Under the pieces are notes generated by a model. That model was not told where the DNA came from. It did not search any database and saw only the letters and a list, made by a program, of their open reading frames with translations. The translations under genes were made by a program, and so were the position numbers. From a virus, in IMG/VR virus record IMGVR_UViG_3300010370_000028, positions 32,001 through 96,000 of that record: a stretch of 64,000 nt of DNA. One strand, 5' to 3'. Shown here piece after piece: positions 4,287-21,445 of the stretch (the stretch's first letter is position 1; each line of letters opens with the position of its first letter).

Positions 4287-4315
4287 TTTAACCCCTTAAT
4301 AAAAGAAGAAAAACT

Positions 4316-5437
4316 ATGAAAATTACTTTAAAAAGAACTCCAGAACAAGTCGAGTTAATTAAGGCTATGGCTTCAAAGAACCGTGCGGTTGCAGTTGAAG
4401 CTCAGGTTGCACTTGCTGAATTCATCGGACCAGTATTGGCTGAGGTTATCAACAACGCTCCTACCCTTAGTAACTTATTCACAAGCCTTCAGTTTAATGC
4501 TGATGACAATCCAAGCATTCCGCTTGATCTCTATTATGACATCACAGCTGAAGACTATATCACTGTTTACAGCCAAAGCGTAGCTGGTGGTCTTCCACAG
4601 AACCAAGTTCTCCCAACTGTTTCTGAAATGAAGATCGCTACATATACTCTTGACTCAGCACTTAGCTTTGACAAGCGTTATGCTGCTAAGAGCCGCATGG
4701 ATGTAGTTAGCAAGACCTTTACTCGTATGGCTCAAGAAATCCTTCTTAAGCAAGAGAAGACCTCTGCTAACCTTATCCTTAGCGCACTTGCTGCTGCTCA
4801 AACAAATGGTAAGCAACACGTACAACGCGCCAATACAAATGGCCGTTTCCTTCTTGCTGACCTTAACGAACTCTTCACCCTTTCCAAGAGAATCAATACC
4901 TCATGGCTCAAGGGAACTCCAGAAGCACGTGGTGGACGTGGTATCACTGACCTCATTGTTTCTCCAGAAGTTGTTCAAGAGCTTCGTGCAATGGCTTACA
5001 ATCCAATCAACACTGTTGGAAGCAAGACTGATATTCCAGCTACCGATGAAATGAGAACAGCTGTTTATAACAACGCAGGTATTCCTGAGTTTTATGGAGT
5101 TGCTATCATGGAAATCAATGAGCTTGGCCGTGGTCAGCGTTTCAACACAATCTTTGATAACGTTTCTTCACAAAGCTACACAACCGCCGCTGGTGGCAGC
5201 TCCGCTGCATTCAATGGTGCTAATGAAGAAATCATCATTGGTCTTGACCGTGGACGTGAGTCCCTTATCCGTGCAGTTGCCGTTGATTCTGAGAATGGTT
5301 CTGAATTCAGCCTTACCGCTGATGACCAGTACAGCATCCGTCAGAACAAGATCGGTTACTTCGGTTCACTTGAAGAAGGACGTATGGTTCTTGACAATCG
5401 CGCTCTCGTTGGCAAGATTGTTTCTGGCCTCGCTTAA
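4316..5437 (+). CDS. Major capsid protein (HK97 fold)
   Basis: 373 aa, follows the scaffold and decoration genes, ITDLIVSPE motif, strong C-ending codon bias, followed by a strong terminator. Confidence 0.85.
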   Translation: MKITLKRTPEQVELIKAMASKNRAVAVEAQVALAEFIGPVLAEVINNAPTLSNLFTSLQFNADDNPSIPLDLYYDITAEDYITVYSQSVAGGLPQNQVLPTVSEMKIATYTLDSALSFDKRYAAKSRMDVVSKTFTRMAQEILLKQEKTSANLILSALAAAQTNGKQHVQRANTNGRFLLADLNELFTLSKRINTSWLKGTPEARGGRGITDLIVSPEVVQELRAMAYNPINTVGSKTDIPATDEMRTAVYNNAGIPEFYGVAIMEINELGRGQRFNTIFDNVSSQSYTTAAGGSSAAFNGANEEIIIGLDRGRESLIRAVAVDSENGSEFSLTADDQYSIRQNKIGYFGSLEEGRMVLDNRALVGKIVSGLA

Positions 5438-5453
5438 TTCAAGCTATAAATTT

Positions 5454-5487
5454 AAGAGTCACCCTGAAAGGGGTGACTCTTTTTTTT
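5454..5487 (+). terminator. Rho-independent terminator after the capsid operon
   Basis: AAGAGTCACCC-TGAAAG-GGGTGACTCTT followed by a T-run. Confidence 0.9.
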
Positions 5488-5507
5488 GTTTAAATTTCCA
5501 GTATTAA

Positions 5508-5516
5508 TGGTATAAT
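5508..5516 (+). promoter_or_regulatory. Extended -10 promoter element (TGGTATAAT)
   Basis: TGn-TATAAT ends 5 nt before ATG 5522. Confidence 0.5.
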
Positions 5517-5521
5517 ATAGT

Positions 5522-5974
5522 ATGGCTAGAAAAAAGAAAATTGAAATTACTAATGGCTTGGAACAAGTAAACGATGTAGCTGTTGGTTCAACAGAAAAGA
5601 AAACATTAGTTCAAGAAATAGATGAAATGAGAGCTTCTGGTAAGGTGGGAACTCCAGAATTTGTTGGTAAAATGAGGGAACTTGAGATCCTATTGGGAGT
5701 ATCAGAGATTAGTCCATTTGGTACAAATGAACTTGAAGTATTTGAAGCGAATTTAAGAGAAATGTCTCTATCTGAAATGCAAAAGGTTGCCCAAAAGGTT
5801 GGGCTTAATCCGTTTCACGACCAAGTAACATTAAAAAATATTTTAATTAAAGAGTTTAAAGCATCCACGAGAAATAGCCGCAGAAACATTATGCCTACCA
5901 TGATGGAGAGCTTTAAAATTGATCCAAATAATCCAAAACACAAGGAATTACTTAAAATACTTAATGATATTTAA
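5522..5974 (+). CDS. Hypothetical protein
   Basis: 150-aa ORF; helical segment LSEMQKVAQKVGL resembles small Rho-N/SAP-like helical domains (weak). Confidence 0.6.
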   Translation: MARKKKIEITNGLEQVNDVAVGSTEKKTLVQEIDEMRASGKVGTPEFVGKMRELEILLGVSEISPFGTNELEVFEANLREMSLSEMQKVAQKVGLNPFHDQVTLKNILIKEFKASTRNSRRNIMPTMMESFKIDPNNPKHKELLKILNDI

Positions 5975-5980
5975 GTGTAA
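5975..5980 (+). promoter_or_regulatory. GTGTAA putative late-promoter motif
   Basis: 8 nt upstream of ATG 5989; recurrent motif. Confidence 0.6.
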
Positions 5981-5988
5981 TATAAAGT

Positions 5989-6450
5989 ATGAGTGTAATT
6001 GCGGACTTATCTTTAAAAATATTTCAGACAGAATTTGATAGTGATACTGGCATTATGCCACGTTCTCATATCTCAGGATGGTTAGATGCTAACCTTGGAC
6101 AATTAAATACATTATTAAATACTTCTTATAGTGGTTCAGATGCAGAGCTTGATTTAGAATCTCAAGCTATTTATAAAGAGCTATATTTAGCTAGTTATTA
6201 TAGAAAGCAATCTAGAAACGCATTAAGGGGTTTGGTTGATTCTAATGGTGGTGGTGGAGACATATTGAGCCTTAGAGATGGCAATAGCTCTGTTACATTC
6301 ACCAATAAAAATGAAGTGGCAAAGGTCTATAAAAGCATGGCTGATGACGCTGAAGTGCGTTTAAATCAACTTGTTGCAAAGTATAATATATATCAATCAC
6401 AACCGCTTCAATTGGGTGGTATTGAAACTAATTTAGATATTTATTATTGA
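5989..6450 (+). CDS. Putative head-tail adaptor/connector
   Basis: 153 aa; helical N-terminus then SLRDGNSSVTF beta hairpin typical of adaptors; synteny. Confidence 0.55.
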   Translation: MSVIADLSLKIFQTEFDSDTGIMPRSHISGWLDANLGQLNTLLNTSYSGSDAELDLESQAIYKELYLASYYRKQSRNALRGLVDSNGGGGDILSLRDGNSSVTFTNKNEVAKVYKSMADDAEVRLNQLVAKYNIYQSQPLQLGGIETNLDIYY

Positions 6451-6472
6451 TTTTTTATTTAAATTTATATAT

Positions 6473-6504
6473 AAAAAAAGAGGCTGATTTCTCAGCCTCT
6501 TTTT
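6473..6504. terminator. Bidirectional intrinsic terminator
   Basis: AAAAAAAGAGGCTGA-TTTC-TCAGCCTCTTTTT between convergent genes. Confidence 0.9.
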
Positions 6505-6531
6505 ATTTATTAGGGTTTTATATTAGCTGTA

Positions 6532-7632
6532 TTAGCTAAAGATTGTGTTAGTGAAACTACCGCTCATTTGGATACCATTTGAAGTATCGTTAGCGCCACC
6601 GATTTGAGTAGTGAATGTTAAGTCAACTGTTTTATTAGCACCAATTGAGCTTGAAAGACCAAGTGAATCAAGTTGAGCGCGTTTTACAGTATATTTAACG
6701 GCTGGAGTTGATGTACCTGGCTTATTAACAGTAATTGTGATATCTTGTTTTGGATTAGCTTCAACAAGATCAACAAGGCTTCCTTGGCTTGTTTCACTTT
6801 GTACACCATTAACAGTAAGAGTTGCTGTAATTGGGAAGTCAACAGTACGAACGAATGCAAATTTTGAACCAAGTCTTTCAATTGGAGTACGTCCAAGTGG
6901 AAGAGAAAGGCTTGCGCTTTGTAAGTGAAGCTGACTTAATTCTGTTGCACCACCAACACCAGTTCCAGTAAAGCTACCAAACGAAATGGTAACATCTCCT
7001 GGACGTAAGGCATTAACAATGTTAGTTCCAGTATTACCATTTGGATTGGCGAGAAGAATTGAGGTTCCAACTTTAGTTCCATCTGCTTGGTTGATTGCTG
7101 CGTTAGTACCACTGTTTGTTCCAGAAATTGTGAAAGCATTCATATTTGAACCTTCCATTGAAGCTGAAACAGTTGGAATATTTCCTACTGATAAGTCAAC
7201 GGTATAATCAGTAAGGTAAGCGTTACCAATACCGATTACAGATTTTCCAGCAAGACTAGATTCTGAATTTAAGTCTGCACCTTCGCTTGTGGTTACGATG
7301 TAAAAGTTTTGACCGCTTCCGTCTGTTAATTGTCCAGATGGGAATTGGCTTGCAGCTTGACTTCCAGTTGAGACGTAGAATCCAAGAGCGGATTCGTTGG
7401 CTCCATCTGTTAAATAGTATGAAAAGTCAAGGGAAACTGTTGGTGATTCAAGAACGATTGAGTCAATACGAGCCAATTCACCGAATTGGTTAACATCTTG
7501 ACGAGCAATGTTGAAATTATAGTTTGCGCTCTGAACTCTGTCTAATTGATAGTGCTTACCACTTGCTGTTGAAGTAGCTTGTTGACTAACATAAAGACCT
7601 TCTGATTGATAAATTACTCTGTTTCTAGGCAT
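6532..7632 (-). CDS. Major tail tube protein
   Basis: 366 aa, S/T/G-rich beta protein (RVQSANYNF..RQDVNQFG, RTPIERLG..RTVDFPI); high-expression codon bias; last gene of the neck block. Confidence 0.7.
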   Translation of the reverse strand: MPRNRVIYQSEGLYVSQQATSTASGKHYQLDRVQSANYNFNIARQDVNQFGELARIDSIVLESPTVSLDFSYYLTDGANESALGFYVSTGSQAASQFPSGQLTDGSGQNFYIVTTSEGADLNSESSLAGKSVIGIGNAYLTDYTVDLSVGNIPTVSASMEGSNMNAFTISGTNSGTNAAINQADGTKVGTSILLANPNGNTGTNIVNALRPGDVTISFGSFTGTGVGGATELSQLHLQSASLSLPLGRTPIERLGSKFAFVRTVDFPITATLTVNGVQSETSQGSLVDLVEANPKQDITITVNKPGTSTPAVKYTVKRAQLDSLGLSSSIGANKTVDLTFTTQIGGANDTSNGIQMSGSFTNTIFS

Positions 7633-7684
7633 AATATTTAGTTTATTAGTTTTACATTTTAATTTTTAAAATGAGAAATTATTT

Positions 7685-8533
7685 TTAGGATCTAGGATAT
7701 CTTTGCTGATGCATCTCAAAATCAATGAATCCAATATATAAATCATTAGCTAAAGTTTTGCGAGCTTTGTCTGTTAATTTAGAGGTAACAACTTCTTCGA
7801 CAAAGAATAATGGGTTATTTTGATTTTCATTTTTTAATGTTTCATATGAATATGAGCCATTTTTAAGATCACCATATTCTGTTAATGGGTGTCCAGTAAA
7901 TGGTATATTCGTAATTACTTCGTTTTGAGAATCTGCAAAAATTGATAATACTCCATCTAATTGATAGGCATTTTCAGCCATAACAACAGCTTTCATGGAT
8001 ATTTTTGTAGTATCTTCGCCGCCGAAAGCAAATGGTTGGTTATTAATTGATTGGCTAGATAAGAATATAGCTGGAACAACCTGATCGTATGGTTGCACAT
8101 AGCTTTGAGTAGAACTGAAAACTCTTGGATTTGAGTTGTATTTTTTGTCAACCAAAAGATCTTCTTCGCCTTCATTAGTAAAGTATATATTAAAATCTTT
8201 TACTGCAAAACTTCCTGTTATATTAGCTGTATTAGCAGCTCCACTAACTAAAGCTCTACCATTTTCAAAATCAAGCATTAAATTATTACTGCGAGAAGTA
8301 AATGTATTGTTAATCCATACCCCACTTGGCACATCAGCTCCAGCAATAGAACTATCAGTTACCCATTGTTTATATGGGCTTCCAAAGGCTTTATATCTAC
8401 CATCAAGACGATCATCTGCATAATAGTAGAATTTACCAGTTTTATTTGAATAAGCTTGCCCTTTCTTTAGTAAGTAATTATCAAACCAAAGAAAAAATGA
8501 AGTAGTTGCCCTATGTTGGAATTGTTCGATCAT
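7685..8533 (-). CDS. Putative tail terminator/neck protein
   Basis: Directly upstream of the tail tube; VPAIFL..PFAFGG and terminal GFIDFE strand pattern. Confidence 0.5.
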   Translation of the reverse strand: MIEQFQHRATTSFFLWFDNYLLKKGQAYSNKTGKFYYYADDRLDGRYKAFGSPYKQWVTDSSIAGADVPSGVWINNTFTSRSNNLMLDFENGRALVSGAANTANITGSFAVKDFNIYFTNEGEEDLLVDKKYNSNPRVFSSTQSYVQPYDQVVPAIFLSSQSINNQPFAFGGEDTTKISMKAVVMAENAYQLDGVLSIFADSQNEVITNIPFTGHPLTEYGDLKNGSYSYETLKNENQNNPLFFVEEVVTSKLTDKARKTLANDLYIGFIDFEMHQQRYPRS

Positions 8534-9110
8534 ATAAATTAGTTATTTGTTTTTTGTATTTTGTTAATAATGCTGATATATATTTAGTATTTTTAAATTT
8601 GCCTACATTTATTTTACCATCTACCTGAACAGCTTCTCCAGATCTACTTTTAGGACTATCTATAAATAAATAGTATCCTAAACCAGATATACCAGATTCT
8701 ATTCCTTTTGCCCAACTACGACCAGTTGCCCACGGCATTGGGGTTACAGCAAATATATCTTTTGGTTCTGGGAAATTAATAGTAAATAAACTGCCAGAAT
8801 CTATATTTTTGGTAAAATATACTTCCATTGATTCAAATATATTTAATATATCTTTGATTGGATCTGTTCCATCAAAAAATCCAATAAATGAAAATAAGTT
8901 TCCTTGACCACCAAGAGTACCACTTGTATTGGATGCATTAGGTCCGTCTTGAATTTCTTTTGTAACAGGATGATTTAAAAATTCTTGAATTAATTGATTT
9001 TTAATTATTAAAAATTCTTTTCTCACTATCATTTCAAATTCTTTTCTAAGTAATTTTGGTGATTGTGAGTTAATTATTTTCTGAACATCTGCTGGAAGTC
9101 GTTTCGCCAT
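8511..9110 (-). CDS. Putative tail completion/neck protein
   Basis: 199 aa, basic, SWAKGIESG; lies between the stopper-like and terminator-like genes. Confidence 0.45.
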   Translation of the reverse strand: MAKRLPADVQKIINSQSPKLLRKEFEMIVRKEFLIIKNQLIQEFLNHPVTKEIQDGPNASNTSGTLGGQGNLFSFIGFFDGTDPIKDILNIFESMEVYFTKNIDSGSLFTINFPEPKDIFAVTPMPWATGRSWAKGIESGISGLGYYLFIDSPKSRSGEAVQVDGKINVGKFKNTKYISALLTKYKKQITNLYDRTIPT

Positions 9111-9568
9111 TATTCATCAATTGGTGTTAAAAAGAATTCATAGTATTGATTTGAAAATAATCCCATTGGATTACCATCACTTCTAATTGAGAAAGTTATA
9201 CCGTCAAATTCTACTTTTCTAGCTTCTTTAATATAATTATAACCATCTGGATCTACTACAATTTTAACAGAACCTTGGGGCATTATAATTTTATTTTGGG
9301 AGCCTTTATTAGAAGAACTATCAGCAAAATGTTCTTCTTCTAATTTTAAATAATAAATTCTCGCCATAAATGTAGAAGATACAGTTTCGTATTCTACGCT
9401 TGTAGTCGCTCCAATATTTCCATAAATTGAATTATACTGAGGAGAGCTGGATATAGCTATCTTTTTGGCATTTTTATATACTGTGATTTCTCTAGAGAAT
9501 GTATCATGCAAATCAGCTAAAGCTGAAATGACTTTATTTTGTCTAGATAAATTAATTAAGCTTGGCAT
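9110..9568 (-). CDS. Putative head closure/stopper protein
   Basis: 152 aa, beta-rich (KVEFDGITFSI..YYEFFL); first gene of the neck block. Confidence 0.5.
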   Translation of the reverse strand: MPSLINLSRQNKVISALADLHDTFSREITVYKNAKKIAISSSPQYNSIYGNIGATTSVEYETVSSTFMARIYYLKLEEEHFADSSSNKGSQNKIIMPQGSVKIVVDPDGYNYIKEARKVEFDGITFSIRSDGNPMGLFSNQYYEFFLTPIDE

Positions 9569-9576
9569 ATTGAAAT

Positions 9577-9582
9577 TTACAC
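9577..9582 (-). promoter_or_regulatory. GTGTAA putative late-promoter motif
   Basis: TTACAC on the + strand, 8 nt upstream of the minus-strand ATG at 9568. Confidence 0.6.
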
Positions 9583-9613
9583 TTTTTTATTTATTATTTA
9601 TTAAGGTATAAGG

Positions 9614-9901
9614 ATGAATGCTAAAAATTCTTTAGAAAAAAAGTCAAAACAGTCAATTACGGCTATTTTTAAACAGATGTTAATGATGATCGAGGATATG
9701 AAACAAGATCACGACTATCATTATAAAAAATTATATGATAATATTCCAGAAGAATATCACTCCGTAATTTCAGCTGCAAATCATTTTGACGAATCAAAAT
9801 TGGCTTATATTCGCAAAAGAATATTAGATCAGGGAAATGAGTGTTTAAGGAATTTTTCTGATGAAATTAATAATTATACTGTAAGTTTTGTTTTTAAATA
9901 A
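9614..9901 (+). CDS. Hypothetical protein
   Basis: 95-aa ORF filling the gap before 9919. Confidence 0.6.
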   Translation: MNAKNSLEKKSKQSITAIFKQMLMMIEDMKQDHDYHYKKLYDNIPEEYHSVISAANHFDESKLAYIRKRILDQGNECLRNFSDEINNYTVSFVFK

Positions 9902-9918
9902 TATAATAGAAAAATAAT

Positions 9919-10674
9919 ATGGAATTCAAAGAATTATATAGTTTCACAGTCGATAAGGAAGTAGAGAAAACAATTGAATCTACTAAAAAGGATAAGAAAA
10001 CAGGGGAAGAAATTACTACCAAGAAAAAGGTAAAGGAAAAAGTACCCGTTTCAATTCGTTTAAAAAGACCTTCACGCAGAGAATTGGAAGAAGCTGAATT
10101 AGAGTTCAGTGTTGAAATGAGTCGCTGCGTTAAAAAGGGTATTTTAACAAAAGCTATGCTTGCCAAAAAGTATAGTGACACTGGTGGCTTGATGAGTGAA
10201 GATGCCGCTGGTTCATTAGTCGATGCTTATAAAAAGATTTTTGATTTACAAAATGAATATTCCCGTCTTGAAATTATTCAAGATAAATCTGATAAACAAA
10301 AGACTAGGGTTGAAGAAATTACAAAAGAACTCGCCGCAACTCGCCGTGAAATTGTAGAATTTGAATCAAACTATCAATCTCTTTTCGATCATACTGCTGA
10401 TGTTAAAGCTCAGAATCGTTTGATTTTATGGTATGTTATCATGCTTACTTATATTCAAGAAGAAGAAGATGAAAATCCAAAACCATATTTCGGGGCTGGT
10501 GATTTTGATCAAAAAATTGAAGAATATTATAAAAGAGAAGAATCTGATGATAGTCTTTATTTTTTAATTACTAAGAAGGCTGCGACTATTTTAGCTTTCT
10601 GGTTCTTTAATCAAGCTTCCGACAAAGAATCATTTGATGGTTTAATGGAGAAACTTGAAAAGAATGAAGTGTGA
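9919..10674 (+). CDS. Putative tail assembly chaperone
   Basis: Charged/coiled-coil 251 aa, two genes before the tape measure. Confidence 0.45.
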   Translation: MEFKELYSFTVDKEVEKTIESTKKDKKTGEEITTKKKVKEKVPVSIRLKRPSRRELEEAELEFSVEMSRCVKKGILTKAMLAKKYSDTGGLMSEDAAGSLVDAYKKIFDLQNEYSRLEIIQDKSDKQKTRVEEITKELAATRREIVEFESNYQSLFDHTADVKAQNRLILWYVIMLTYIQEEEDENPKPYFGAGDFDQKIEEYYKREESDDSLYFLITKKAATILAFWFFNQASDKESFDGLMEKLEKNEV

Positions 10675-11657
10675 GTGAAGAAGAATATATAGCCATTGTT
10701 GGTGAAATATTTGATGGGTATACTGAGTTTTACTTTAAAGGTGAACCAGTATACCTAAAACATTTTTCTATTAGAGATCAAAGGTATATTCATAAATACT
10801 ATAATAAATATAAAAACATTGCAGTTAATAAGGGTATACCAACTGAGGAAGAAGCTTTAAAGCGATTAAAAGAAGATGATTTGTGGTCTAATGATGATGA
10901 TTATAAAATATCATCTTTAGAACTTGAAGTCGATAATTTAAAAGACTCTTTATTAAATACTATTCTTCCTTCACAAAAAAAAGCTTTACAAGAAACAATA
11001 AACGAGAGGCAAAAAGAGTTAAATATTTTAAAAATTAAAAGAAAAGAAGTGGTTGGTACTACTGCCGAAGATTTTGCTAATTCTAGAGCTAATGAAGAGT
11101 TTATTAGATATATTTTATTTAAAGACCAAGAATTAAAACAACATTTATTTACTGAAGAAGAGTTTGGAAATTTAGATGATAAAGACATCACCGCTTTGAT
11201 TAAACAAAACTCAAGTTGTTCTAGTAGATTAAATGAAGAATTAATTCAAGAAAGTGTATTAAGAGATTTTTTTAATATGTATCTTTCTCAAACTGAAGAT
11301 GTTTCATCTTTTTATGGAAAACCAATTATACATCTTTCTGTTTATCAACTAAAGTTAGCATTATATGCTAGAGTATTTTATAATATATTCCAATATAATG
11401 ACGATATTCCAAATGGAATTAAAAAAGATCCATCTGCTTTATTAAGATTTGCAGAAAGTAAACGTAGCGGTGGTAACAATAAAGTTTTATCAAAGATAAA
11501 AGATAAAGATTCTGGAGCAACAACTCTTTTTGGTGCAACAAAAGAAGATTTGCAAGAGGTAATACCAGATGCACCAACGATTTCATTATCAGATCATATT
11601 AAAAATAGTGGAGGTACTTTAAGTATGGATGATATGATTAAATTAATGGGAGAATAG
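10671..11657 (+). CDS. Putative tail assembly chaperone / pre-tape-measure protein
   Basis: GTGA overlap with the previous gene; FYGKPIIHLSVYQ segment; directly before the tape measure. Confidence 0.45.
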   Translation: MSEEEYIAIVGEIFDGYTEFYFKGEPVYLKHFSIRDQRYIHKYYNKYKNIAVNKGIPTEEEALKRLKEDDLWSNDDDYKISSLELEVDNLKDSLLNTILPSQKKALQETINERQKELNILKIKRKEVVGTTAEDFANSRANEEFIRYILFKDQELKQHLFTEEEFGNLDDKDITALIKQNSSCSSRLNEELIQESVLRDFFNMYLSQTEDVSSFYGKPIIHLSVYQLKLALYARVFYNIFQYNDDIPNGIKKDPSALLRFAESKRSGGNNKVLSKIKDKDSGATTLFGATKEDLQEVIPDAPTISLSDHIKNSGGTLSMDDMIKLMGE

Positions 11658-11667
11658 TATTTTTTAT

Positions 11668-11673
11668 GTGTAA
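11668..11673 (+). promoter_or_regulatory. GTGTAA putative late-promoter motif
   Basis: 21 nt upstream of the tape-measure ATG, followed by AAGGA-type SD. Confidence 0.55.
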
Positions 11674-11694
11674 ATATTCCTAAAGGAATAAGGA

Positions 11695-14600
11695 ATGCCA
11701 CTACAAGTACCAGTAACTCAAACAGGATTAGAAGCGAGCATTATAGCGGCAGCTAAAAAAGCTGGCAGGAACTTAAATATAAATCTAGGTACTAATACTA
11801 GAAGTATTAGCGCCTTATCTCAACCACTTGGAAGAATTACTGGTCAGGCTGATGAATTTACAAAATCAATGGAAGCCGCAAATGCTCGTGTATTTGCTTT
11901 CGGTGCTTCAGTTGGTATTATTAATGGAGTAACTAAAGCTTTTGGAGCATTAGTTAGAAATACAATTGAGGTTGAAAGATCTCTTGTAGAAATTAATACA
12001 GTTTTGGGAGCGAGTAGCGACTCTTTACAAAAATTTGGTAATAAACTTTTTGATGTAGCTAAAAGTACTGGTCAAACTTTTGATATTGTTGCCAAAGGTG
12101 CATTAGAACTTGCAAGACAAGGTTTAAGTACAGAAGAAACTTTAAAAAGAATTAATGATGCACTTATTCTTTCAAGACTTTCTGGTTTAGATGCACAACA
12201 ATCTGTTGAAGGTTTAACAGCGGCATTTAACTCATTTAAAGAAACTGGAATTACAACATCTCAAATTCTTAACAAATTAGTTGTTGTTTCTCAAAAATAT
12301 TCTGTTTCAGAAAGAGATTTAATTGAAGGTCTTAAAAGATCTGCGTCTGTTGCGGATCAAGCTGGTGTTTCTTTTGATGAATTAGTTGGTATTATTACAA
12401 CCGTTCAAGAAAGAACTGCTCGTGGTGGTGCTGTTATTGGTAACGCATTTAAAACAATTTTTGCTCGCATACAAGATAGAGGAGCATTAGAAGATTTGCG
12501 TAGTTTTGGTATAGAAATTCAAGATGTACAAGGAAAAATTTTACCAGCAACACAAATTTTACAAAACTTAGCTGGAGAATTCAATAAATTAACTCAAGTA
12601 GAACAGGCAGATCTTGCCAAAAAACTTGGCGGTGTCTATCAGTTATCAAACTTATTAGCTGCAGTTAAAGATTTATCAAGTGAGCAGTCTAAGTATGTTG
12701 ATATTGTTAAACTTTCAGCTGGAGCAACTGATGAAGCTTATAAGAAAAATGCTGCATTAAATGAAACTCTTGCTACTTTAATTAATAAAGTTACTCTTAG
12801 CGCACAACAACTTGGTGCAACTTTAGGAGAAATTGGTATTGCTGATGGCTTAAAGAAGTTATTAGATTTTGTTAATTATATTTTTGAAGGTTTCCAAAAA
12901 ATCCTTGGAGAAGAAAGTGCATTAGGAACTTTATTTAAAGGGTTAGCAAAGGGAATTGGAAGTGTTTTAGCTGGTCCTGGTTTAGCAATATTTGCAGCTA
13001 TTATTGGAAAACTTTCTATACAATTAGCTGGGTTTGGTGTTGAAGCTTTAAAGTCCTTCTTTAAAATAACCTCCACTTCAAAAGAACTTCAAAATATACA
13101 AGGTGCTATTACAAGCACTTTATTAAATAATAAACAAATACAACAACAAATTTTAAATCTTGAAGGCAATAGGGTTGCTCAAGCACAATTTATAAGTACA
13201 GCTTTAAATGAGCAACTTAAAACAATGCAGAGAATGCAAAGCATTGCAGCATCTATAACTCCAGATGTTTATGCAGCAACATCTGGCGCTCGAAAAAGTG
13301 CGTCAAAAAATGTAGCTGGTGCAGCTGGTGGTTATATGCCAGCAGTTGCTGGAGAAGCTTCAGATATTCGTCGTGGTGTTGGTGGGGCAAGAGCTGGTGA
13401 TAAACCAGTAGTAATTCCAAATTTTGCATTTGGTGGCGGCAAGAAAGGAACTATGGTTGCTCATACTGGTGAGTATATTGTTCCTAATTTTGCAAGAGGT
13501 GGGTCTGCTATCTTTAATAGAGATATGATTGCATCAATGGGTCTTCCATCTGGCGCTAAAAAGATTGGTGCTGCTGGAGGATTTATTCCAAATTTTGCTG
13601 AATGGTATGATAGTTCAACTAAAAAAGTAGTAACTTCAACAGATTATCCAAAAACTCCAGGGAATTGGACAAAAATTGCCAGTAATTCCCAAACCTATAG
13701 AAAATATGCAGATACTTTAGAAAATTATAAACTTCCTAATGTTGACTTTTATCTGTTCCCAGATGGAACGGGTGGTCGTGGAGCTACAGTTAGAGGCGCT
13801 CTTGGTAGAAGTAAATCTAAAGCAGTTGAGAATATTGAAAAACAACAGCAAAAAGTTGAAAAATCTGGGTTTTTTAATTTAAATGCAGATCAGCTAGGCG
13901 GAATCCTTCTTGTTTCGCCTAGATTTGGTAAAGGAGTCGGTAGTTTAGATACATCAATGCAAATTGCAGAAATACCGATCTTTAATCAAGGCAAATTCCA
14001 AGTTGATAAAAATAAATATATTAATTTAAAAGGAGTTAAGACATCTAATACTCCAAGCGGAAGAGATTTACAAGGATTACAGGGAGATATAAGTCAATTA
14101 TTCGCAGGTGGAATTGTAGATCTTGCTTATAGATTATATGGAAGCACTTTTGATCCAGCAAGCGCTGGAGAGTTTACTCAAAAATTAAAATCTTTAGATA
14201 GTTCAAATAAACAACAATTAATACCACAGGCTGCACAAGGAGATTTATTTGAGGCTGCTGGTAAAGTTGCCCTTAATAGTTTTAGCAATTTAGAATCTTT
14301 ATTTGGTTCTGCAGAACAAAATAGACCGTTTGATTTTCAAAATCCAGCTGCATTACAAAAAATGTTTGGAGTTAGTGTTTTAAGAGGGGAAGCGAAAAGA
14401 GGGGGAGAAAAAAACTTTTCGTCATCCAAACAAGTATCTGGTATTATTAAGAAAGTTTTTAATGATCCAGAATATTCTCCAAAAGCATTAGACGCTTTAA
14501 AAGCTCAAGGAGCTTTTAGTGCAGAGATGCAAAAACAGAAAAAAGAAGAAGAAATTTCTAATGCTGTAAGTGGTTTTGTTCCTAATTTTGCAAAAATTTT

Positions 14601-17600
14601 TGATTTAGTTAAAAATTTCAGTAGTACTTTATCACCTAAATTAAAACTTTCAAAATCTTCAGATAATAGATTAAATGAAAATGATTCAGTTAATTTAATT
14701 GGTAATAGATTTAATAAATTGTTTGTACCAAAAAAAGATGGTGAAAATGGAGAAAGATATGAAAAAAGGGTTTTAAGCGAATTAGGTTATACCTCATCAA
14801 TAGGTTTAAATTTTAAAGGTAATTCTGCAATTGATGGATATAAAAATGCTACCTCACTTGTAGAAGTGAAAAGTGGATTTTATAATGAACAAGATACTAA
14901 ACTTAAATTTTTAAGAGCATTAGCAGAAAATTATGGAACAAATAATCAATTAGATATATGGACTAGCAATATTGATGACTTTAAAGTTAATGGATTATTA
15001 GTTCATTCTGATGAATCTGACATAAGTAATAAAAGTAAACCATCACAACTACGAAAAGATTTTCAAATGTCTGACGCTTTAAGAGCGAATAAATACAATC
15101 GCTTAAAAAGATTTTCTAAAGGCTATATTCCTAATTTTGTAAGTCAAAAATATATATTAAATACTCTTGCTAGAATAAAAGCTGGGACAAGTGGTTTCTC
15201 AAAACAAGAACAAGAGACATTCTTAAATAAATTCGGCGCAAAATCTACTGGTAAAAAAATCTCTCTTAGAGAAGTTTATGATAAATTAGATGGAGAAGTT
15301 GGAATTGCTCAATTAATTGATAAAGCCTATTCTGCCGCTGGACTTACAGCGTCTAACGAAGAAGTTTATAGAATGTTTGAAAAACAAACTAAAGCAAATC
15401 CTTATCTATTAAGATCTTTAGTTTCAAAAAAAGGCTTTGTTCCTAACTTCGCAGATCCACTTAAAGAAGCTATAGGTCGTGAAATGTCTGCTGGTGTTCC
15501 AGCTTCACAAATTTATGTAGACCAAAATTCATCATTAAAGAATCCAATGAATCCAATGGGATTAATGGTTGCTAATCGTCGTGATGAACCATCTGGTGGT
15601 ATGCAAGGAATTAATCGCGCTAGAAAAGAAGGCGCTAATCCAATGATGTATGGTGCAGCTGGAGGATTTGTTCCTAATTATGCATCAATTCCAGCAATGC
15701 CAACAATGGGATCAGTGGGTAGTTCATCTGTTGCAAATAAATTTAACGCAGCTTTAAATAAAGCCACCTTAGAATTACAAAATGGTTCTACGACTATTAA
15801 TCAAGTTATTGCTGAATTAGGTAAAATAAGACCGACAGCTACAAAACTAACTGCAAATGCGCAAGCATTAGCTCAAAAATATCAAGAAGAGCTTTTACAA
15901 AGGCAACAAGCAGTTGCTACAAGAATCTTAGAGTCTAATGCTGGCAAAAAATTAGCAGCTCAATTAGATAAAGTTTATATTGAATATAATAAAAGCCAAA
16001 AATCAGCGGCAGATTTAGATGCTGCACAAAAAAAAGCAGCAGCAATATTACAAAAAACAAGTTTAAGTCAATCAAGTCAAAGAGCAATAGTTTCTTCCAC
16101 TGGTTCGTTGGCTGGATCTAGATTAACAGCGCAACCTCAAGCTACTGGAGATTTGTTAACTAAAATGTTTGGTTTGCAAACAGCATTAAGTCTTTTAACT
16201 GGTGCTACTTCTGATACAGAAAATGCTTTTGCTACAGCTGCTAATGCGATTACAAGTGTAGCTTCTAGTTTTACATCTGTTTATTTAGTATTTGAAGGTT
16301 TAAAAGGTGCTGGTGGTAAACTTGGAAGTCTTTTTGGAGCTTTAGGTGGTAAACTTGGTATTTATGCAGCTGGTGCATATGCACTTTATGAAGGTTGGCA
16401 GATTCTTGCTAAAAACCTAGATTCAACAAATAGCTCAATTAATAATGCTTCTTACGCAATGGAAGGTCTTGCAAAAGCGGCATCTGGAGCAACAGTTAAT
16501 TATGGGACATTATCAGAATCACAAAAGAAAAGAATTAAAACATCAAGAGAAGGATTAATTGAAGGAGGAAAATTGTATGAAAAGGTAACGTATGATGCAA
16601 AAGGAGAACTTAAAAATCGTGCGTTAATGAAAGCCTCTTTTGAAGGATATAGCGATGAGTTGGAAACACAATTTGAAGGCGCAATAGACCAAGCTTTAGC
16701 TGTAGGTGTTTCATATGATGTAATGTTCAATAAATTTAACGCAGCTGCAAAATCTGCAAATAAAATTACAGCCGAAGAAGTTGAAGGTATGATAAATGAG
16801 TTTAAAATTTTAGCTGAAGAAATAGCTAAAGTAAAACCAACAGATTTTCTTAAAAATGCTGGTATATTTGAGGGTGGAAAAAATGCAGAATTTGCTAAAA
16901 AATTTCAAAACTATACTTCTGATCAATTAGAAGAACAATTAAAATTATTTAATGAAAAAGGAAAAGGTAAAGGAACTACACAGCTACAAGAACTTATTAC
17001 GCAATACACCCCAATTAGAGGTTTAACAGCTCAAAAAGATTTTGCTAGAGCAGCTTATCAACAACAAAAAGAGGCTGCAAAAGTTCAAGAAGAAAGCATT
17101 AAAACAGCAACAGAAAGTGCAAGTCTTTCATTATTAAAACAACAGTTAGAAAACAGGATAGCTTACAAAAAAGCTTTATTTGAAGCTTCAAGTGCTGAAG
17201 AATACTCTTTAGAGCTTCAAAAAGAAATGTTATCAGTTAGTGAAAAAGATAGAACATTAGCTGATTATAAATTACAAAGTTTACAAGCCGCCAAAAAACT
17301 AACATCAGAACAAGCTGATGCGACTATTGGTATTTTAAAAGATTCAGAATTAATTCAGAAAAAATTACAAGCCGCTGGAGTTGCTGATAAAATTGATCCA
17401 GAAAAATTCAAACAATTAACTTCTGCCGCAGAAGAAGTCGGAGATGCAATTCTAAAGCAAGGTGGATACACTGATGAAGTTAAAACTAAATTACAGGCAT
17501 TATTAACACCTTTAAATTTAACAGCTGAACAGCAAAAATTAATTCGTGATACAGTTCAAGAAACAAATGATCAATTAGCAAAACAAGCTGCTTTACAAAA

Positions 17601-20600
17601 TAAATTAAATGCTCAATCTAATTTACAAAAAGCAACTTTAGAAGCTATAAATTTCATTACTCAAAAAAGATCTGAAGCAATTACTAATCAATATGATAAG
17701 CAGTTAAAAGCAAATGAATTGGAAAAAAGAAGAATTGATTTAGAAAAAGAAGCGGGTATATTACAATTAGAACGTAGAAAAATTGGCGGCGGCGCTGGAA
17801 GTAATTTAGGTGTTGATAGAGAAATTGCTCAATTAGAAAAAAATGCAATAAAATTAAAATTTGATATTGATCAAAAAGATTTAATAAATCAAGTAAGAAA
17901 AGCACTTGCTGAAGCGGCATTAAGTGCGGGGTTAACGCCAACTGAAGTAGAAAATCTAAATTTACAAAATGTAACAACTAAAGAACAGGCTGTAGATAAA
18001 GCTAAAGAAATTGAAGACATTGAAACAGAAATAAAAATAAAAAAATTAATAGCAGCTCAAGAAGAATTTAAAAAAACTATTTTAGCTTCCAATTACTTTA
18101 AAAATCAAGTAACGAGTGCGGCAGATATATTTCTTCAAAAAATTCAAGAAGCTTTTCCTGGGGCTAAAACTTCATTTGTAACTCAAGACGACTTAAACCA
18201 ATATGTACAAAATTTAAATAAAGGGGATGCAGGTGGGGCGCAAACGCTTCCCCCAACTGTTGTTACACCTGAAGAAGATTTAATAGCAAAAGGACAAGCG
18301 GAAATTGATGCTTTACTTGCAAACAGAAAAACGGGAGATTCTTCTTTTGTTGGTGATGTTGAAAGATTGTTTGATGAAAATCAAAAGATTAAATATCTTG
18401 AATTTCAAAATGCTCTTACAGAAATAGATAATCGTCTTTTAGCTGCTGGAGGATCTTTAACTACATTTGCTAATTTAGTAAGAGATGTATTCAGTAATTT
18501 GCCAGAAAATATTGCTCAAAATCAATTTGCAATGTTAACTGCAACAGATACTCAGTCCATCATAGGAAATGCTGTAGAAGCAAGAAGAAATGCTATATTA
18601 GCGCAGGGACCAAAAGATGAAACAACTATTGTCAAAGCCGCTGACGCTACAGCAATTTATGAAAAAGAACTTGAGATCAAAAAAGCAATCACTGCCGCAG
18701 ATAAAATTAACGGCGAATTTGAATTGCAAAAATTAAAAGAAATTCTTCCACTTAGATTAGAATTATTAAAAGCTGAAACAAATGAAGAAAGAGAAGCTAT
18801 AATTGATAGAATCATAGCAAAGGAAAAACAAAGACTCCCAATTCTTCAAAGAATAAAAGCCGAATTTTCTTCTACCGCAGAACAAAGAACTGCAGAACTT
18901 GAAGATTCTGTTGTAAATGCTTCTGTTCAATTTAGAGATAATATAGTTGAAGGAATATCACAAGCTATTGAAGGAGGTTCAAGTTTAAAAGATATATTAT
19001 TAAATGCTGCTCTTGAATTTACTAGAGAAATAACAAAAGCATCTTTAAAAAATGCTCTTGGTTCAATAGGAAATTTATTTAATTTCGGAGGAGTTGGAAA
19101 ATATGCCTCTGGTGGTATGATTAATGGAGGTTCTGGATCAAAAGATGATGTTCCAGCAATGTTAATGGGTGGAGAGTTTGTTGTAAATAAAAAAGCTGTA
19201 CAAAAATATGGACCAGACTTTTTACATGCAATTAATAATGGCACATTAGGTGGATACGCTAAAGGTGGCGGTGTTAAAAAATTTACTGATCAAACAGGTG
19301 AGGGTGGATATTTCTTACCAGGTTTATATGGTAATGAATCAGTTGCTAGTCAACAAGGTTTATTTGATTTTGCAACACAAAATTATACATCTGGAGCTAG
19401 AGATGTAATTTCTTCTGGAGAAAATTATGCATCAATTAATTTAGAAACGGAAAGTTTTAGATTAACTCAAAGAGGAAGAGAGAATAATCCAATGTTTGCT
19501 GCCACTCAATCAGCAAAAGAGCAAGCATTAGGATTAGTTTTTCAAGAAGCTGAAAACTGGGAAAAATATCGTGAGGCGGTAGAAGAAGCAAAAAGACAGG
19601 AAAAAGAAAGACAAAAAGCAATTCGAAAACAATTATTAATATCTGCAGCAATGGCTGTTGGTAGTGCTGTAGCTGGACCAGTTCTTGGTGCTGCTGCATC
19701 TGGATTTAAAGCTGCATTTGGAGCTTCATCTGCCGCTAATAATGGATTTTTAACAAATCTTGGCGCTGGACTTAAGGGTATATTTACTGGTGGTCAATTA
19801 GCAGGAAGCACCCTGACTCAAAATGTTGGAGGTTTAAATAATTTATTTGCTAGTCTTGGTAAAGGACTAACTGGTAATTTTGCAGAAGCTGGAAATCTTT
19901 TTAAATTATCACAAATAGGAAGCGCCGATCAACTACAAAAAGCTTTTGCTGGGAGTATTACATCTAAAAGTAATTTTTCTAATTATTTAACAGATAATGG
20001 GTATATTCCACAAGCCTCTATTGTTAACGAGGGAGGAATTGGTATTAATGGAACTAACAATTGGTTTTCCAATATTTTTGGTGGGGTGAAAAGATTTTTA
20101 GGCTTGGGTCAGGGTAGAGATATAGATGAAAATGGGTTTGAGTCAACAGCTATTGATAATCCAGCTGTGGGTATGAGTAGACAAGAATTGCTTGAATTAA
20201 CTCAAGACCCATTAATGAGAGATATTTATAATCAAAATCCAGCTGAATGGAAAAGGCGAGCGACTGGTGGAATTATTCCTTCAACCTCTGGTATAGATAC
20301 TGTTCCAGCAATGCTTTCTGGCGGTGAGTTTATTATGAATAGAGCCGCTACTCAAAACATTGGTTCTGGTAATTTACAAGCGTTAAATTCTGGTGGAGGT
20401 TCTGTTGTAACTGAGGAAAAAACAGAAGAATTAAATGATAAATTAATTTCTAAATTAGATGAGTTAATACAAGCGAGTATATCAAAAAGTTCAGTTGGAG
20501 AAATTAATATAAATGTTGATAGTAGCGGTAAATCTAAAGAATCAAGCTCTAATGTTGAAAGCGGTGGACAAAGCCAACAACTTGCAAGAAGTATTAGAGA

Positions 20601-20655
20601 TATGGTTGTAAAAGTTATTCAAGATGAACAAAGATTAGGAGGATTATTAAGATAA
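11695..20655 (+). CDS. Tail tape-measure protein with internal cargo modules
   Basis: N-terminal TP901-type TMP core (LELARQG, GGAVIGNAFKTIFARI); long A/Q/E/K helical body; C-terminal D.VPAML.GGEF motifs; 2986 aa. Confidence 0.9.
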   Translation: MPLQVPVTQTGLEASIIAAAKKAGRNLNINLGTNTRSISALSQPLGRITGQADEFTKSMEAANARVFAFGASVGIINGVTKAFGALVRNTIEVERSLVEINTVLGASSDSLQKFGNKLFDVAKSTGQTFDIVAKGALELARQGLSTEETLKRINDALILSRLSGLDAQQSVEGLTAAFNSFKETGITTSQILNKLVVVSQKYSVSERDLIEGLKRSASVADQAGVSFDELVGIITTVQERTARGGAVIGNAFKTIFARIQDRGALEDLRSFGIEIQDVQGKILPATQILQNLAGEFNKLTQVEQADLAKKLGGVYQLSNLLAAVKDLSSEQSKYVDIVKLSAGATDEAYKKNAALNETLATLINKVTLSAQQLGATLGEIGIADGLKKLLDFVNYIFEGFQKILGEESALGTLFKGLAKGIGSVLAGPGLAIFAAIIGKLSIQLAGFGVEALKSFFKITSTSKELQNIQGAITSTLLNNKQIQQQILNLEGNRVAQAQFISTALNEQLKTMQRMQSIAASITPDVYAATSGARKSASKNVAGAAGGYMPAVAGEASDIRRGVGGARAGDKPVVIPNFAFGGGKKGTMVAHTGEYIVPNFARGGSAIFNRDMIASMGLPSGAKKIGAAGGFIPNFAEWYDSSTKKVVTSTDYPKTPGNWTKIASNSQTYRKYADTLENYKLPNVDFYLFPDGTGGRGATVRGALGRSKSKAVENIEKQQQKVEKSGFFNLNADQLGGILLVSPRFGKGVGSLDTSMQIAEIPIFNQGKFQVDKNKYINLKGVKTSNTPSGRDLQGLQGDISQLFAGGIVDLAYRLYGSTFDPASAGEFTQKLKSLDSSNKQQLIPQAAQGDLFEAAGKVALNSFSNLESLFGSAEQNRPFDFQNPAALQKMFGVSVLRGEAKRGGEKNFSSSKQVSGIIKKVFNDPEYSPKALDALKAQGAFSAEMQKQKKEEEISNAVSGFVPNFAKIFDLVKNFSSTLSPKLKLSKSSDNRLNENDSVNLIGNRFNKLFVPKKDGENGERYEKRVLSELGYTSSIGLNFKGNSAIDGYKNATSLVEVKSGFYNEQDTKLKFLRALAENYGTNNQLDIWTSNIDDFKVNGLLVHSDESDISNKSKPSQLRKDFQMSDALRANKYNRLKRFSKGYIPNFVSQKYILNTLARIKAGTSGFSKQEQETFLNKFGAKSTGKKISLREVYDKLDGEVGIAQLIDKAYSAAGLTASNEEVYRMFEKQTKANPYLLRSLVSKKGFVPNFADPLKEAIGREMSAGVPASQIYVDQNSSLKNPMNPMGLMVANRRDEPSGGMQGINRARKEGANPMMYGAAGGFVPNYASIPAMPTMGSVGSSSVANKFNAALNKATLELQNGSTTINQVIAELGKIRPTATKLTANAQALAQKYQEELLQRQQAVATRILESNAGKKLAAQLDKVYIEYNKSQKSAADLDAAQKKAAAILQKTSLSQSSQRAIVSSTGSLAGSRLTAQPQATGDLLTKMFGLQTALSLLTGATSDTENAFATAANAITSVASSFTSVYLVFEGLKGAGGKLGSLFGALGGKLGIYAAGAYALYEGWQILAKNLDSTNSSINNASYAMEGLAKAASGATVNYGTLSESQKKRIKTSREGLIEGGKLYEKVTYDAKGELKNRALMKASFEGYSDELETQFEGAIDQALAVGVSYDVMFNKFNAAAKSANKITAEEVEGMINEFKILAEEIAKVKPTDFLKNAGIFEGGKNAEFAKKFQNYTSDQLEEQLKLFNEKGKGKGTTQLQELITQYTPIRGLTAQKDFARAAYQQQKEAAKVQEESIKTATESASLSLLKQQLENRIAYKKALFEASSAEEYSLELQKEMLSVSEKDRTLADYKLQSLQAAKKLTSEQADATIGILKDSELIQKKLQAAGVADKIDPEKFKQLTSAAEEVGDAILKQGGYTDEVKTKLQALLTPLNLTAEQQKLIRDTVQETNDQLAKQAALQNKLNAQSNLQKATLEAINFITQKRSEAITNQYDKQLKANELEKRRIDLEKEAGILQLERRKIGGGAGSNLGVDREIAQLEKNAIKLKFDIDQKDLINQVRKALAEAALSAGLTPTEVENLNLQNVTTKEQAVDKAKEIEDIETEIKIKKLIAAQEEFKKTILASNYFKNQVTSAADIFLQKIQEAFPGAKTSFVTQDDLNQYVQNLNKGDAGGAQTLPPTVVTPEEDLIAKGQAEIDALLANRKTGDSSFVGDVERLFDENQKIKYLEFQNALTEIDNRLLAAGGSLTTFANLVRDVFSNLPENIAQNQFAMLTATDTQSIIGNAVEARRNAILAQGPKDETTIVKAADATAIYEKELEIKKAITAADKINGEFELQKLKEILPLRLELLKAETNEEREAIIDRIIAKEKQRLPILQRIKAEFSSTAEQRTAELEDSVVNASVQFRDNIVEGISQAIEGGSSLKDILLNAALEFTREITKASLKNALGSIGNLFNFGGVGKYASGGMINGGSGSKDDVPAMLMGGEFVVNKKAVQKYGPDFLHAINNGTLGGYAKGGGVKKFTDQTGEGGYFLPGLYGNESVASQQGLFDFATQNYTSGARDVISSGENYASINLETESFRLTQRGRENNPMFAATQSAKEQALGLVFQEAENWEKYREAVEEAKRQEKERQKAIRKQLLISAAMAVGSAVAGPVLGAAASGFKAAFGASSAANNGFLTNLGAGLKGIFTGGQLAGSTLTQNVGGLNNLFASLGKGLTGNFAEAGNLFKLSQIGSADQLQKAFAGSITSKSNFSNYLTDNGYIPQASIVNEGGIGINGTNNWFSNIFGGVKRFLGLGQGRDIDENGFESTAIDNPAVGMSRQELLELTQDPLMRDIYNQNPAEWKRRATGGIIPSTSGIDTVPAMLSGGEFIMNRAATQNIGSGNLQALNSGGGSVVTEEKTEELNDKLISKLDELIQASISKSSVGEININVDSSGKSKESSSNVESGGQSQQLARSIRDMVVKVIQDEQRLGGLLR
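13321..15684 (+). repeat. Dispersed peptide repeat (G)(F/Y)(I/V)PN(F/Y)(A/V) within the tape measure
   Basis: PNFA at 13417, 13483, 13588, 14581 and 15442; PNFV at 15130; PNYA at 15673; degenerate AAGGYMPAVA at 13321. Confidence 0.9.
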
Positions 20656-20656
20656 A

Positions 20657-21445
20657 ATGTTTGGTTCTATTGATAATTATGAAAATGAATTTTTTGTCAA
20701 TGGGCAAAAAGTTTTAGGTGTTGAATCGATTGATTTAAGTTATTCAAATAATCCAGTTGTAGAGAATTTTTTAGGAACTAGAAAAGGATTAACTATAATC
20801 AATGGACCGACATCTCAAAAAATATCCATAAATAGATATTTAATATATAATGATCCTTTTTTATCTTTTACTGGTTCTAATTCGTTTTCTGGCAGTATTA
20901 ATTATGAAAATAAATATTATGGTTTTAATAGCGGCTTCTTAGATGATTATTCAATTAGTTGTGCAGTTGGGAGTATTCCAAAGATTAATTTAAATGCAAC
21001 AATATATGATGAATTAACTACTGGTAAAAATAGTAGAGGATCTATTGCATCACCATCAATTTATATACCAAATCAAGGATCTATATCTATAACATGCGAT
21101 GGATCTTCAACAAATCGAGTTGTTGGTTTTGATTATGCAATTAAAGTATTTAGAACTCCTGTTTATAGTATTGGTTCAAAATTTGTTAATCAAGTAATTT
21201 CGACACCAAATATCCAATTTGCTTCATCTGTTCAAATTGATTTAGATGATTTATTTTTAAGAAGTGGTTTTGATTTTATTTCAGATAGACAAAATAAAAA
21301 TTTATCTTTTTCTATAAAATCTAGAGACGGTTTAACAACTTTACAATCTTTAGTTATGCCAAATGCTTCTCTTGTTGGAGAGTCTTTATCTAATAATGTT
21401 GATGGTGGTATAAAATTAACACTTAATTATATTGGACATATATGA
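20657..21445 (+). CDS. Tail-tube-fold tail tip protein
   Basis: GFLDDYSISCAVGSIPKI and RTPVYSIGSKF align by eye with the tail tube (AYLTDYTVDLSVGNIPTV, RTPIERLGSKF); first gene after the TMP. Confidence 0.6.
   Translation: MFGSIDNYENEFFVNGQKVLGVESIDLSYSNNPVVENFLGTRKGLTIINGPTSQKISINRYLIYNDPFLSFTGSNSFSGSINYENKYYGFNSGFLDDYSISCAVGSIPKINLNATIYDELTTGKNSRGSIASPSIYIPNQGSISITCDGSSTNRVVGFDYAIKVFRTPVYSIGSKFVNQVISTPNIQFASSVQIDLDDLFLRSGFDFISDRQNKNLSFSIKSRDGLTTLQSLVMPNASLVGESLSNNVDGGIKLTLNYIGHI

Follow-up and report, generated by a model that had tools for sequence, protein, structure and literature searches.

A linker-delimited cassette array in the tape measure protein of an uncultured freshwater phage

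Introduction

Tape measure proteins (TMPs) are usually seen as rulers and channel formers of phage tails, and in siphophages they leave the tail ahead of the DNA. Here we analyze the TMP gene in a 64,000-nucleotide (nt) stretch of viral DNA (IMG/VR record IMGVR_UViG_3300010370_000028, positions 32,001 to 96,000; referred to as the window, with coordinates counted from its first letter), where the ruler appears to host a recombining library of folded domains behind one short peptide. Short peptides at the border between constant and variable regions are known from CdiA (VENN) and Rhs (PxxxxDPxGL), where they coincide with recombination breakpoints and, in Rhs, with a cleavage site. Such polymorphic toxins carry one toxin, at the C-terminus, and an immunity gene lies next to it.

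Several other described systems come close to the locus in one respect or another. According to the accessible text of the respective papers, the 5002-residue TMP gp96 of Thermus phage P23-45 contains, in its N-terminal part, a virion RNA polymerase that transcribes the pre-early genes (PMC10770324), while mycobacteriophage TMPs, e.g. that of TM4, have embedded peptidoglycan-hydrolase motifs (PMC1796659). Polyvalent proteins are multidomain, rapidly reshuffled proteins proposed to enter the host with the DNA, and domain-releasing processing has been proposed for some of them (Iyer et al. 2017, PMC5512222); the main text of that paper, as accessible, contains none of the terms “tape measure”, “linker” and “PcfJ”.

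Results

The linker-delimited array

The window encodes a TMP of 2986 amino acids (aa) which, judged from its sequence, contains a genuine linker-delimited hypervariable cassette array after the TP901 core, in the head-proximal third of the protein. A first-pass annotation of the same DNA had listed seven PN(F/Y)(A/V) motifs, five of them full linkers with modules between them. A six-frame regular-expression scan of the window found PN[FY][AV] seven times, at exactly the coordinates listed there (starts at nt 13417, 13483, 13588, 14581, 15130, 15442 and 15673), all inside the TMP open reading frame (ORF) and nowhere else. From the composition of the TMP itself, 0.044 such motifs would be expected, and 3e-5 of the longer G[FY][IV]PN[FY][AV]. 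Five of the seven were indeed full AAxG(F/Y)(I/V)PN(F/Y)A linkers with modules between them in the TMP ORF, while the remaining two are degenerate and lie in the array head, M0. The layout is as follows (+, plus strand; 121 proteins, the homologue set described below):

11695-20655 (+): TMP ORF (P0001, 2986 aa), a single ORF with PF10145, TIGR01760 and PHROG matches and minor tail genes downstream
11926-12963 (+): TP901-type TMP core, aa 78-423 (TIGR01760 tape_meas_TP901 of NCBIfam, 138.2 bits, cut-off 28.8)
13321-13569 (+): array head M0, aa 543-625, starting AAGGYMP, with degenerate linkers VVIPNFA (13417) and GEYIVPNFA (13483)
13570-13599 (+): linker 1, AAGGFIPNFA, aa 626-635
13600-14562 (+): module M1 (family 1, ~325 aa), predicted globular alpha/beta, present in 106 of 121 proteins
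14563-14592 (+): linker 2, AVSGFVPNFA, aa 957-966
14593-15111 (+): module M2 (family 5, ~175-177 aa), probably PD-(D/E)xK nuclease-like, absent from the L001, X3 and X4 contigs
15112-15141 (+): linker 3, FSKGYIPNFV, aa 1140-1149
15142-15423 (+): module M3 (family 2, 98 aa), present in 32 of 121 proteins
15424-15453 (+): linker 4, VSKKGFVPNFA region, aa 1244-1253
15454-15654 (+): module M4 (family 0, 71 aa), array terminator in 109 of 121 proteins
15655-15684 (+): linker 5, terminal variant AAGGFVPNYA, aa 1321-1330, a mosaic breakpoint

The identity of the host protein follows from several matches. Pfam placed PF10145 (PhageMin_Tail) at aa 121-313 (E 3e-32, 112.5 bits, cut-off 33.2), ten of the eleven PHROG matches carry the name “tail length tape measure protein”, and the ORFs downstream match phrog_14 (minor tail protein) and phrog_5939 (tail protein). 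The ORF is also the longest in the window. These matches identify the protein as a TP901-family TMP.

Variation among homologues

A homologue search with aa 540-1340 as the query gave 715 matches among 8000 scored candidates. The best 120 of the 715, all metagenomic TMPs of ~1660-4360 aa, were analyzed together with the TMP of the window. Every analyzed homologue contains the linker peptide, with differing copy number (~1 to 10) and spacing. The proteins were cut at the pattern [FYLM][IVLM]PN[FY][AVSG], and BLASTP clustering of the 427 inter-linker pieces (E < 1e-5, mutual coverage of 60% or more), with those shorter than 25 aa set aside, sorted them into 39 module families; the 121 proteins display 70 distinct architectures. 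Both counts are approximate, since off-pattern linkers, such as GFIPNFY in L049, are missed.

Two families are near-universal, with family 0 (M4) closing the array in 109 proteins and family 1 (M1) occurring in 106, and the array head was kept in all four N-terminal sequences aligned. The remaining 37 families are variably present and change their order; family 5, to which M2 belongs, opens the array in 14 of its 19 carriers and comes after family 1 in the other 5. The number, identity and order of modules therefore vary around conserved linkers, as the first-pass annotation had expected of a cassette array, and the region is not collinear and invariant among its homologues.

The alignments themselves break at the linkers. 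When the TMP of the window was compared with 129 relatives by BLASTP, 384 of the 448 endpoints of high-scoring segment pairs in aa 600-1400 fell within 20 aa of a linker, where only 26% of the region lies so close, although these pairs are not independent of one another. With two of the 121 proteins set aside because of their length or because they had fewer than two linkers, the array spans 77-1890 aa in the other 119. This span rises with total length (r = 0.81), whereas it shows no correlation with the length of the part behind the array (r = 0.0; 1535 ± 201 aa). The array thus adds to the length of the TMP without compensation elsewhere in the protein.

Seven homologues (P0009, P0029, P0030, P0034, P0049, P0061 and P0078) contain the terminator family 0 twice, in the middle and at the end of the array, as though two whole arrays had been fused end to end.

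Recent cassette events at linkers

The IMG/VR contig L001, the closest relative, is 92.6% identical in nt to the window over 3346-14593 (11.3 kb), and the match then resumes at 15126-15683 with 96% identity. The piece absent from L001 consists of M2 and one linker, 549 nt, and at the chimeric junction the left half of linker 2 is joined to the right half of linker 3:

14577-15125 (+): 549-nt presence/absence unit (M2 plus one linker), with a junction that can be placed anywhere within the common linker DNA

The same 549-nt skip (14576 to 15126) was found in X3 and X4, two freshwater runs from other studies, in one contig each; it is bridged by these contigs and is the one uncovered stretch in the two runs that we interpret. 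The match of X3 and X4 contigs to the window ends at 15683 and, on the other side, upstream of 13321, leaving loose ends there. Runs X1 and X2, possibly the source of the window, contain the form with M2 and show zero differences. A replacement is seen between L022 and L024, which are 95.8% identical up to a linker, carry family 6 and family 2, respectively, up to the next linker, and are 92% identical thereafter.

The skip shared by L001, X3 and X4 and the swap between L022 and L024 show that modules are gained or lost, and replaced, exactly at linkers in near-identical phages. In this respect the recombination handle proposed by the first-pass annotation is supported, as three junctions between near-identical genomes fall within or at linkers. 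A systematic survey of mosaicism in phage proteins, as far as its accessible text goes, could not confirm a genuine recent case in a TMP (PMC10684548); the pairs window/L001 and L022/L024 are clean, recent cases of domain mosaicism in such a protein.

Beyond the last linker (15684), the ungapped identity between the window and L001 falls to 33-42% over the next several hundred bases, which is the level of unrelated sequence, while directly upstream the two genomes are 92-100% identical. Window positions 15685-19097 and L001 positions 11815-15228 have no DNA similarity (BLASTN resumes at 19098) and are of equal length, 3415 nt. By its sequence, the central coiled-coil part of the TMP after the last linker is an equal-length replacement of a ruler segment relative to L001. 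At the upstream border of the array, just before its head, 200 nt (13095-13294) are 43-59% identical to L001 between flanks of 81-100%, which we read as a further small mosaic patch.

Selection on the linker peptide

A logo from 496 distinct contexts reads, in percent, A70 A72 G47 G99 F71/Y22 I60/V31 P N F80/Y19 A81, with unconserved flanks. P and N stand at 100% by construction of the pattern, while G(-1), at 99%, lies outside it. Such a strict G-aromatic-aliphatic-P-N-aromatic-A pattern suggests one common recognition partner rather than a passive spacer.

For each conserved residue, codon usage at the linkers equals the background (165 distinct linkers from 46 distinct TMP genes, drawn from 55 loci and the window). 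For proline, the CCA/CCT/CCC/CCG codons occur at 45/39/8/7 in linkers and at 61/29/4/6 in the background. Selection therefore acts on the peptide and not on the DNA, and the linker is maintained at the amino-acid level. A recombination handle as the cause of linker conservation would call for a DNA-level constraint that the codons do not show. Because the preferred linker codons are few and AT-rich, any two linkers share ~17-21 nt, which is enough for microhomology at the L001 junction; the handle is best read as a by-product of a functional peptide.

Structure and conservation of the modules

AlphaFold2 models were obtained for two modules from alignments of 28 (M1) and 25 (M2) sequences. Both show mixed alpha/beta folds, with a predicted local distance difference test (pLDDT) score of 84.7 and a predicted template modeling score (pTM) of 0.66 for M1, and 88.1 and 0.83 for M2. 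M1 and M2 are thus predicted with confidence to be globular domains, in agreement with the earlier remark that the modules look mostly unlike the coiled coil of a TMP.

In M2, residues E69, D93, E103 and K105 are invariant among the 25 sequences. In the model, this acidic/lysine set lies on helix 65-76 and strands 94-97 and 100-105, with a beta-hairpin as in restriction-type nucleases. In a structural comparison with VIA-align, at least 28 of the 50 best rows were named nucleases, restriction enzymes or junction resolvases, and these alignments cover residues 57-167, the stretch that contains the invariant residues; the list includes FAN1, Hjc, CdiA-CT, NucC, FokI, McrC, Cas4 and arenavirus endonucleases. 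We consider it likely, from the model, that M2 is a PD-(D/E)xK-like domain.

M1 shows a related-looking residue pattern in another setting. G228, F231 and K280 are invariant in its 28 sequences, E232 and D259 are at least 90% conserved, and in the rows inspected K280 is preceded, two positions earlier, by E or D, giving a G..FE / D / (E/D)xK pattern. In the model, the D strand and the ExK strand are separated by a helix, unlike the usual hairpin. The module has zero histidines, and an ESM Atlas search with its C-terminal half returned only unnamed viral clusters, with a score of 0.83. Compared with L001, the ratio of nonsynonymous to synonymous substitution rates (dN/dS) is 0.026 for M1 and 0.13 for M3 and M4 together, pointing to strong purifying selection on M1 and less strong selection on M3 and M4.

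M4 is the most conserved module, with 22 invariant columns in 25 sequences. A complex prediction with three linker-M4-linker copies gave a score of 0.00 with the partner fold uncertain, which speaks neither for nor against trimerization. Pfam searches at E ≤ 10 with six TMP segments gave only two chance-level matches, and a PDB sequence search with the 800-aa region, as well as profile searches with M1, M2 and M4, returned nothing meaningful.

Two modules of homologues deserve separate mention. A 639-aa module of a distant homologue (L042:14390-16306) is PcfJ-like (PF14284, 30.8 bits); no other array module has a Pfam family above the cut-off, and this family takes its name from a conjugative-plasmid protein. 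Module family 4 (156 aa in L006:12665-13132; 21 of 121 proteins) has sub-threshold matches to nine P-loop/AAA Pfam families around residues ~27-50, which suggests a small Walker-A nucleoside triphosphatase or a kinase-like cassette.

The first-pass annotation had also pointed to the AT-rich start of M2, and its counts are exact (23 G/C in the 120 nt at 14581-14700, 30 in the 60 nt at 13321-13380). The contrast is real but mostly reflects amino-acid composition, Lys/Asn-rich as opposed to Gly/Ala-rich. Third-position GC is 0.09 in M2 and 0.12-0.16 in other parts of the TMP, and since it differs so little, AT-richness is a weak sign of foreign origin, which we did not retain. The cassette-array proposal is thus supported in part, as regards the linker-delimited array and the crossovers at linkers.

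The tape measure gene and its phage

The TMP has only two strongly hydrophobic stretches (Kyte-Doolittle, 19-aa window > 1.4), aa 417-450 before the array and aa 2646-2671 near the C-terminus, which are possible membrane-inserting segments. Near the C-terminus, a short A-x-GG ... VPAML..GEF(V/I) segment occurs in two copies (~19100-19250 and 20260-20400; aa ~2470-2520 and ~2855-2905), and a third, divergent copy lies inside the array head M0, GTMVAHTGEYIVPNFA. Both the start (A-x-GG-aromatic-aliphatic-P) and the end of this segment are similar to the linker peptide; NCBIfam and Pfam have no model for the segment. The C-terminal region of lambda gpH (TIGR01541) was considered as a relative and discarded, as neither the whole TMP nor three segments of it matched TIGR01541 in an NCBIfam search at E ≤ 1.

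No relative was found among 50,697 deposited phage records, by tblastn with the array or by megablast with 20 kb, and the N-terminal core of the TMP alone matches only distant TMPs at < 30% identity, mostly from Bacillus and Staphylococcus phages. In species-representative genomes, all nine matching loci are contigs of metagenome-assembled genomes with mixed labels, three of them Flavobacteriales. Taken together, the sequence comparisons place the phage in a lineage very distant from catalogued phages.

Eight of the ten proteins tested from the structural region (window 6-11657 and 20657-21445) had no PHROG match at E ≤ 0.001. Among these are the terminase, portal and capsid candidates, which were guessed from gene order alone.

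Discussion

We read the locus as a TMP array of independently folding, linker-fenced modules that recombine at the linkers, and infer that the modules are cargo, including a nuclease-like M2; we give this reading a probability of about 0.6. The short linkers, with their near-identical AT-rich codons, would supply the microhomology at which cassettes recombine, and the linker itself would be a recognition peptide for one common partner. By analogy with P23-45 and with the ejection of siphophage TMPs, the array modules would reach the DNA-entry site just before the DNA, where M2, as a nuclease-like domain of the PD-(D/E)xK type, may act on nucleic acid. The polymerase fused to the P23-45 TMP indicates that protein cargo borne by a TMP is physically possible, and TMP N-termini are described as head-proximal in phage 80alpha, in the accessible text of that report (10.1101/2024.12.10.627806).

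Several points weigh against this reading. Three copies of a folded module of 36 kDa would be too large for the ~4-nm lumen of a tail tube. For M2, the VIA-align scores were weak (FAN1 as the best, Z 3.9 with a root-mean-square deviation of 3.8 over 84 aligned residues; Hjc, 3.6; CdiA-CT, 3.5), and values of Z below 8 may come from a shared arrangement alone. For M2, Foldseek returned no match at E ≤ 0.001, Pfam gave zero families at E ≤ 10 and a PDB profile search zero matches, while an ESM Atlas match to Tox-REase-7 (PF15649), at 0.83, lies below the counting level and is a lead only. The fold of M1 had no match by Foldseek in PDB or BFVD and none by sequence profile, and in a full VIA-align comparison the M1 model aligned only weakly (best Z 2.8; CdiA-CT 2.5). 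A nuclease assignment for M1 had only the residue pattern behind it; hhalign against the M2 family gave a probability of 0.1, and since the two profiles are unrelated, we do not call M1 a nuclease.

A search for free-standing relatives of M2 gave 18 matches among 1.84 billion representatives, nearly all of them long TMPs, and a search of viral contigs with M2 alone found no relative; for M1, the search among proteins of 177-566 aa returned only one TMP fragment. Without detectable free-standing relatives, M1 and M2 are unlike borrowed cellular toxins. When 20 further module families were compared with Pfam, one was above the cut-off (PcfJ-like) and one had sub-threshold P-loop matches; because 19 of the 20 are without a Pfam family, enzyme cargo is not established for most modules. 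The peptidoglycan hydrolase domains of some homologues (GH19, lysozyme, SLT) sit far outside the array, at ~aa 2300-2570, and Pfam found none in the TMP of the window.

The role of the linker can be pictured in more than one way. We lean tentatively towards a joint or docking element that keeps the modules tethered, at somewhat less than even odds. A proteolytic processing site, at which the modules would be freed in the virion or after ejection as separate effectors, is rather doubtful. The layout would suit it, as the same strict peptide stands at each module boundary, before the first and after the last, in the pattern of viral polyprotein cleavage sites, and the peptide is under amino-acid-level selection. 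Linker residues are also predicted with pLDDT < 50 (1-8 of the M1 model; 1-7 and 191-200 of the M2 model), as would suit an exposed site, although chain ends often score low anyway. Processing is known for TMPs such as lambda gpH, and some virus capsid proteins cleave themselves in an Asn-dependent manner. However, Pfam found no protease domain in the TMP or its modules, M1 is without any histidine, and self-cleavage is unlikely for a ten-residue peptide whose surroundings change from case to case. The searches made found no free-standing or split module genes either, and for the TMP-enzyme fusion of P23-45 the accessible text reports no cleavage, its authors picturing the enzyme as staying with the TMP pore (PMC10770324).

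In its most far-reaching form, which we regard as improbable, the linker would be the universal processing or sorting signal of a phage “cargo polyprotein” system. The TMP would then be a programmable delivery vehicle, with interchangeable effectors that are released by cleavage at the linker while the TMP is ejected or afterwards, perhaps through Asn-dependent chemistry or the action of a host protease, and that disarm host defenses or handle DNA ends at the entry pore; the linker DNA would be the crossover site for trading effectors. If this is true, the effectors would comprise nuclease-like, P-loop and PcfJ-like domains and dozens of unknown folds.

A purely structural role is less probable still. 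Here the modules would belong to the tail or neck (as plug, spacer, lumen filler or an element that spans the envelope), their variation would reflect adaptation to the host envelope or drift, and the linkers would dock to the tube or to assembly chaperones. The near-universal M1 and M4, with dN/dS values as expected of structural parts, would fit such a role, as would the lack of an enzyme family in most modules, and repeated aromatic-containing peptides could touch a common surface. Gain and loss of the other 37 families between close relatives, in differing orders, are hard to square with a fixed role, the span of the array varies from 77 to 1890 aa without compensation elsewhere, and both M2 and M1 retain catalytic-looking acidic/lysine constellations. 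Finally, mis-assembly of metagenomes at repeated linker DNA is a highly implausible source of the shuffling, for although every relative is a metagenomic contig and each gene contains the linker DNA repeatedly, the common stretch of only ~17-21 nt is usually exceeded by the final word sizes of assemblers, more than 100 independent assemblies have one intact ORF of 2100-4400 aa each, the form without M2 comes from two runs of other studies and an IMG/VR contig while that with M2 is unchanged in two runs that are possibly its source, and family-specific conservation spans whole modules.

If the recombining array does carry cargo, its dozens of domain families of unknown fold, probably brought to the DNA-entry site by analogy with the systems above, form a candidate pool of anti-defense or DNA-handling functions. 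They belong to a large uncultured lineage of aquatic phages, with at least 715 detectable homologues. The role of the short linker peptide, as a cut site, a docking strand or both, is directly testable, and the peptide, if portable, could serve to bring foreign domains into phage tails.

A literature search, which left out subscription journals, found no description of the linker peptide or of such TMP arrays, and the closest systems differ from this one in definable ways. CdiA and Rhs share the feature of a border peptide, whereas here several cassettes stand in tandem within a structural protein of the virion, tail genes come next, and there are no orphan cassettes in the window (zero further motifs). 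As described in the accessible text, gp96 of P23-45 is likewise a giant TMP with a large globular enzyme that is head-proximal and active in the host at genome entry. Its single fixed enzyme lies at the extreme N-terminus, and that text describes neither a repeated delimiter peptide nor cassette variability; the array of the window sits after the TP901 core, and the arrays of its family hold 1 to ~10 interchangeable modules. TMPs of the TM4 type, in the portion of the literature accessible, also have an enzymatic motif within the TMP that serves infection, but these are single small cell-wall motifs without a delimiter peptide, while the hydrolases of the array family lie outside the array. 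Polyvalent proteins share with the array several unrelated domains per polypeptide and variable architectures. In the accessible text they are defined by catalogued conflict domains and embedded peptidases, often of the MPTase type, whereas Pfam found no peptidase or catalogued conflict domain in the modules of the window, and a Pfam family in only the PcfJ-like one among the 20 further families. The array belongs with TMPs that carry embedded or fused enzymes and with polyvalent virion proteins.

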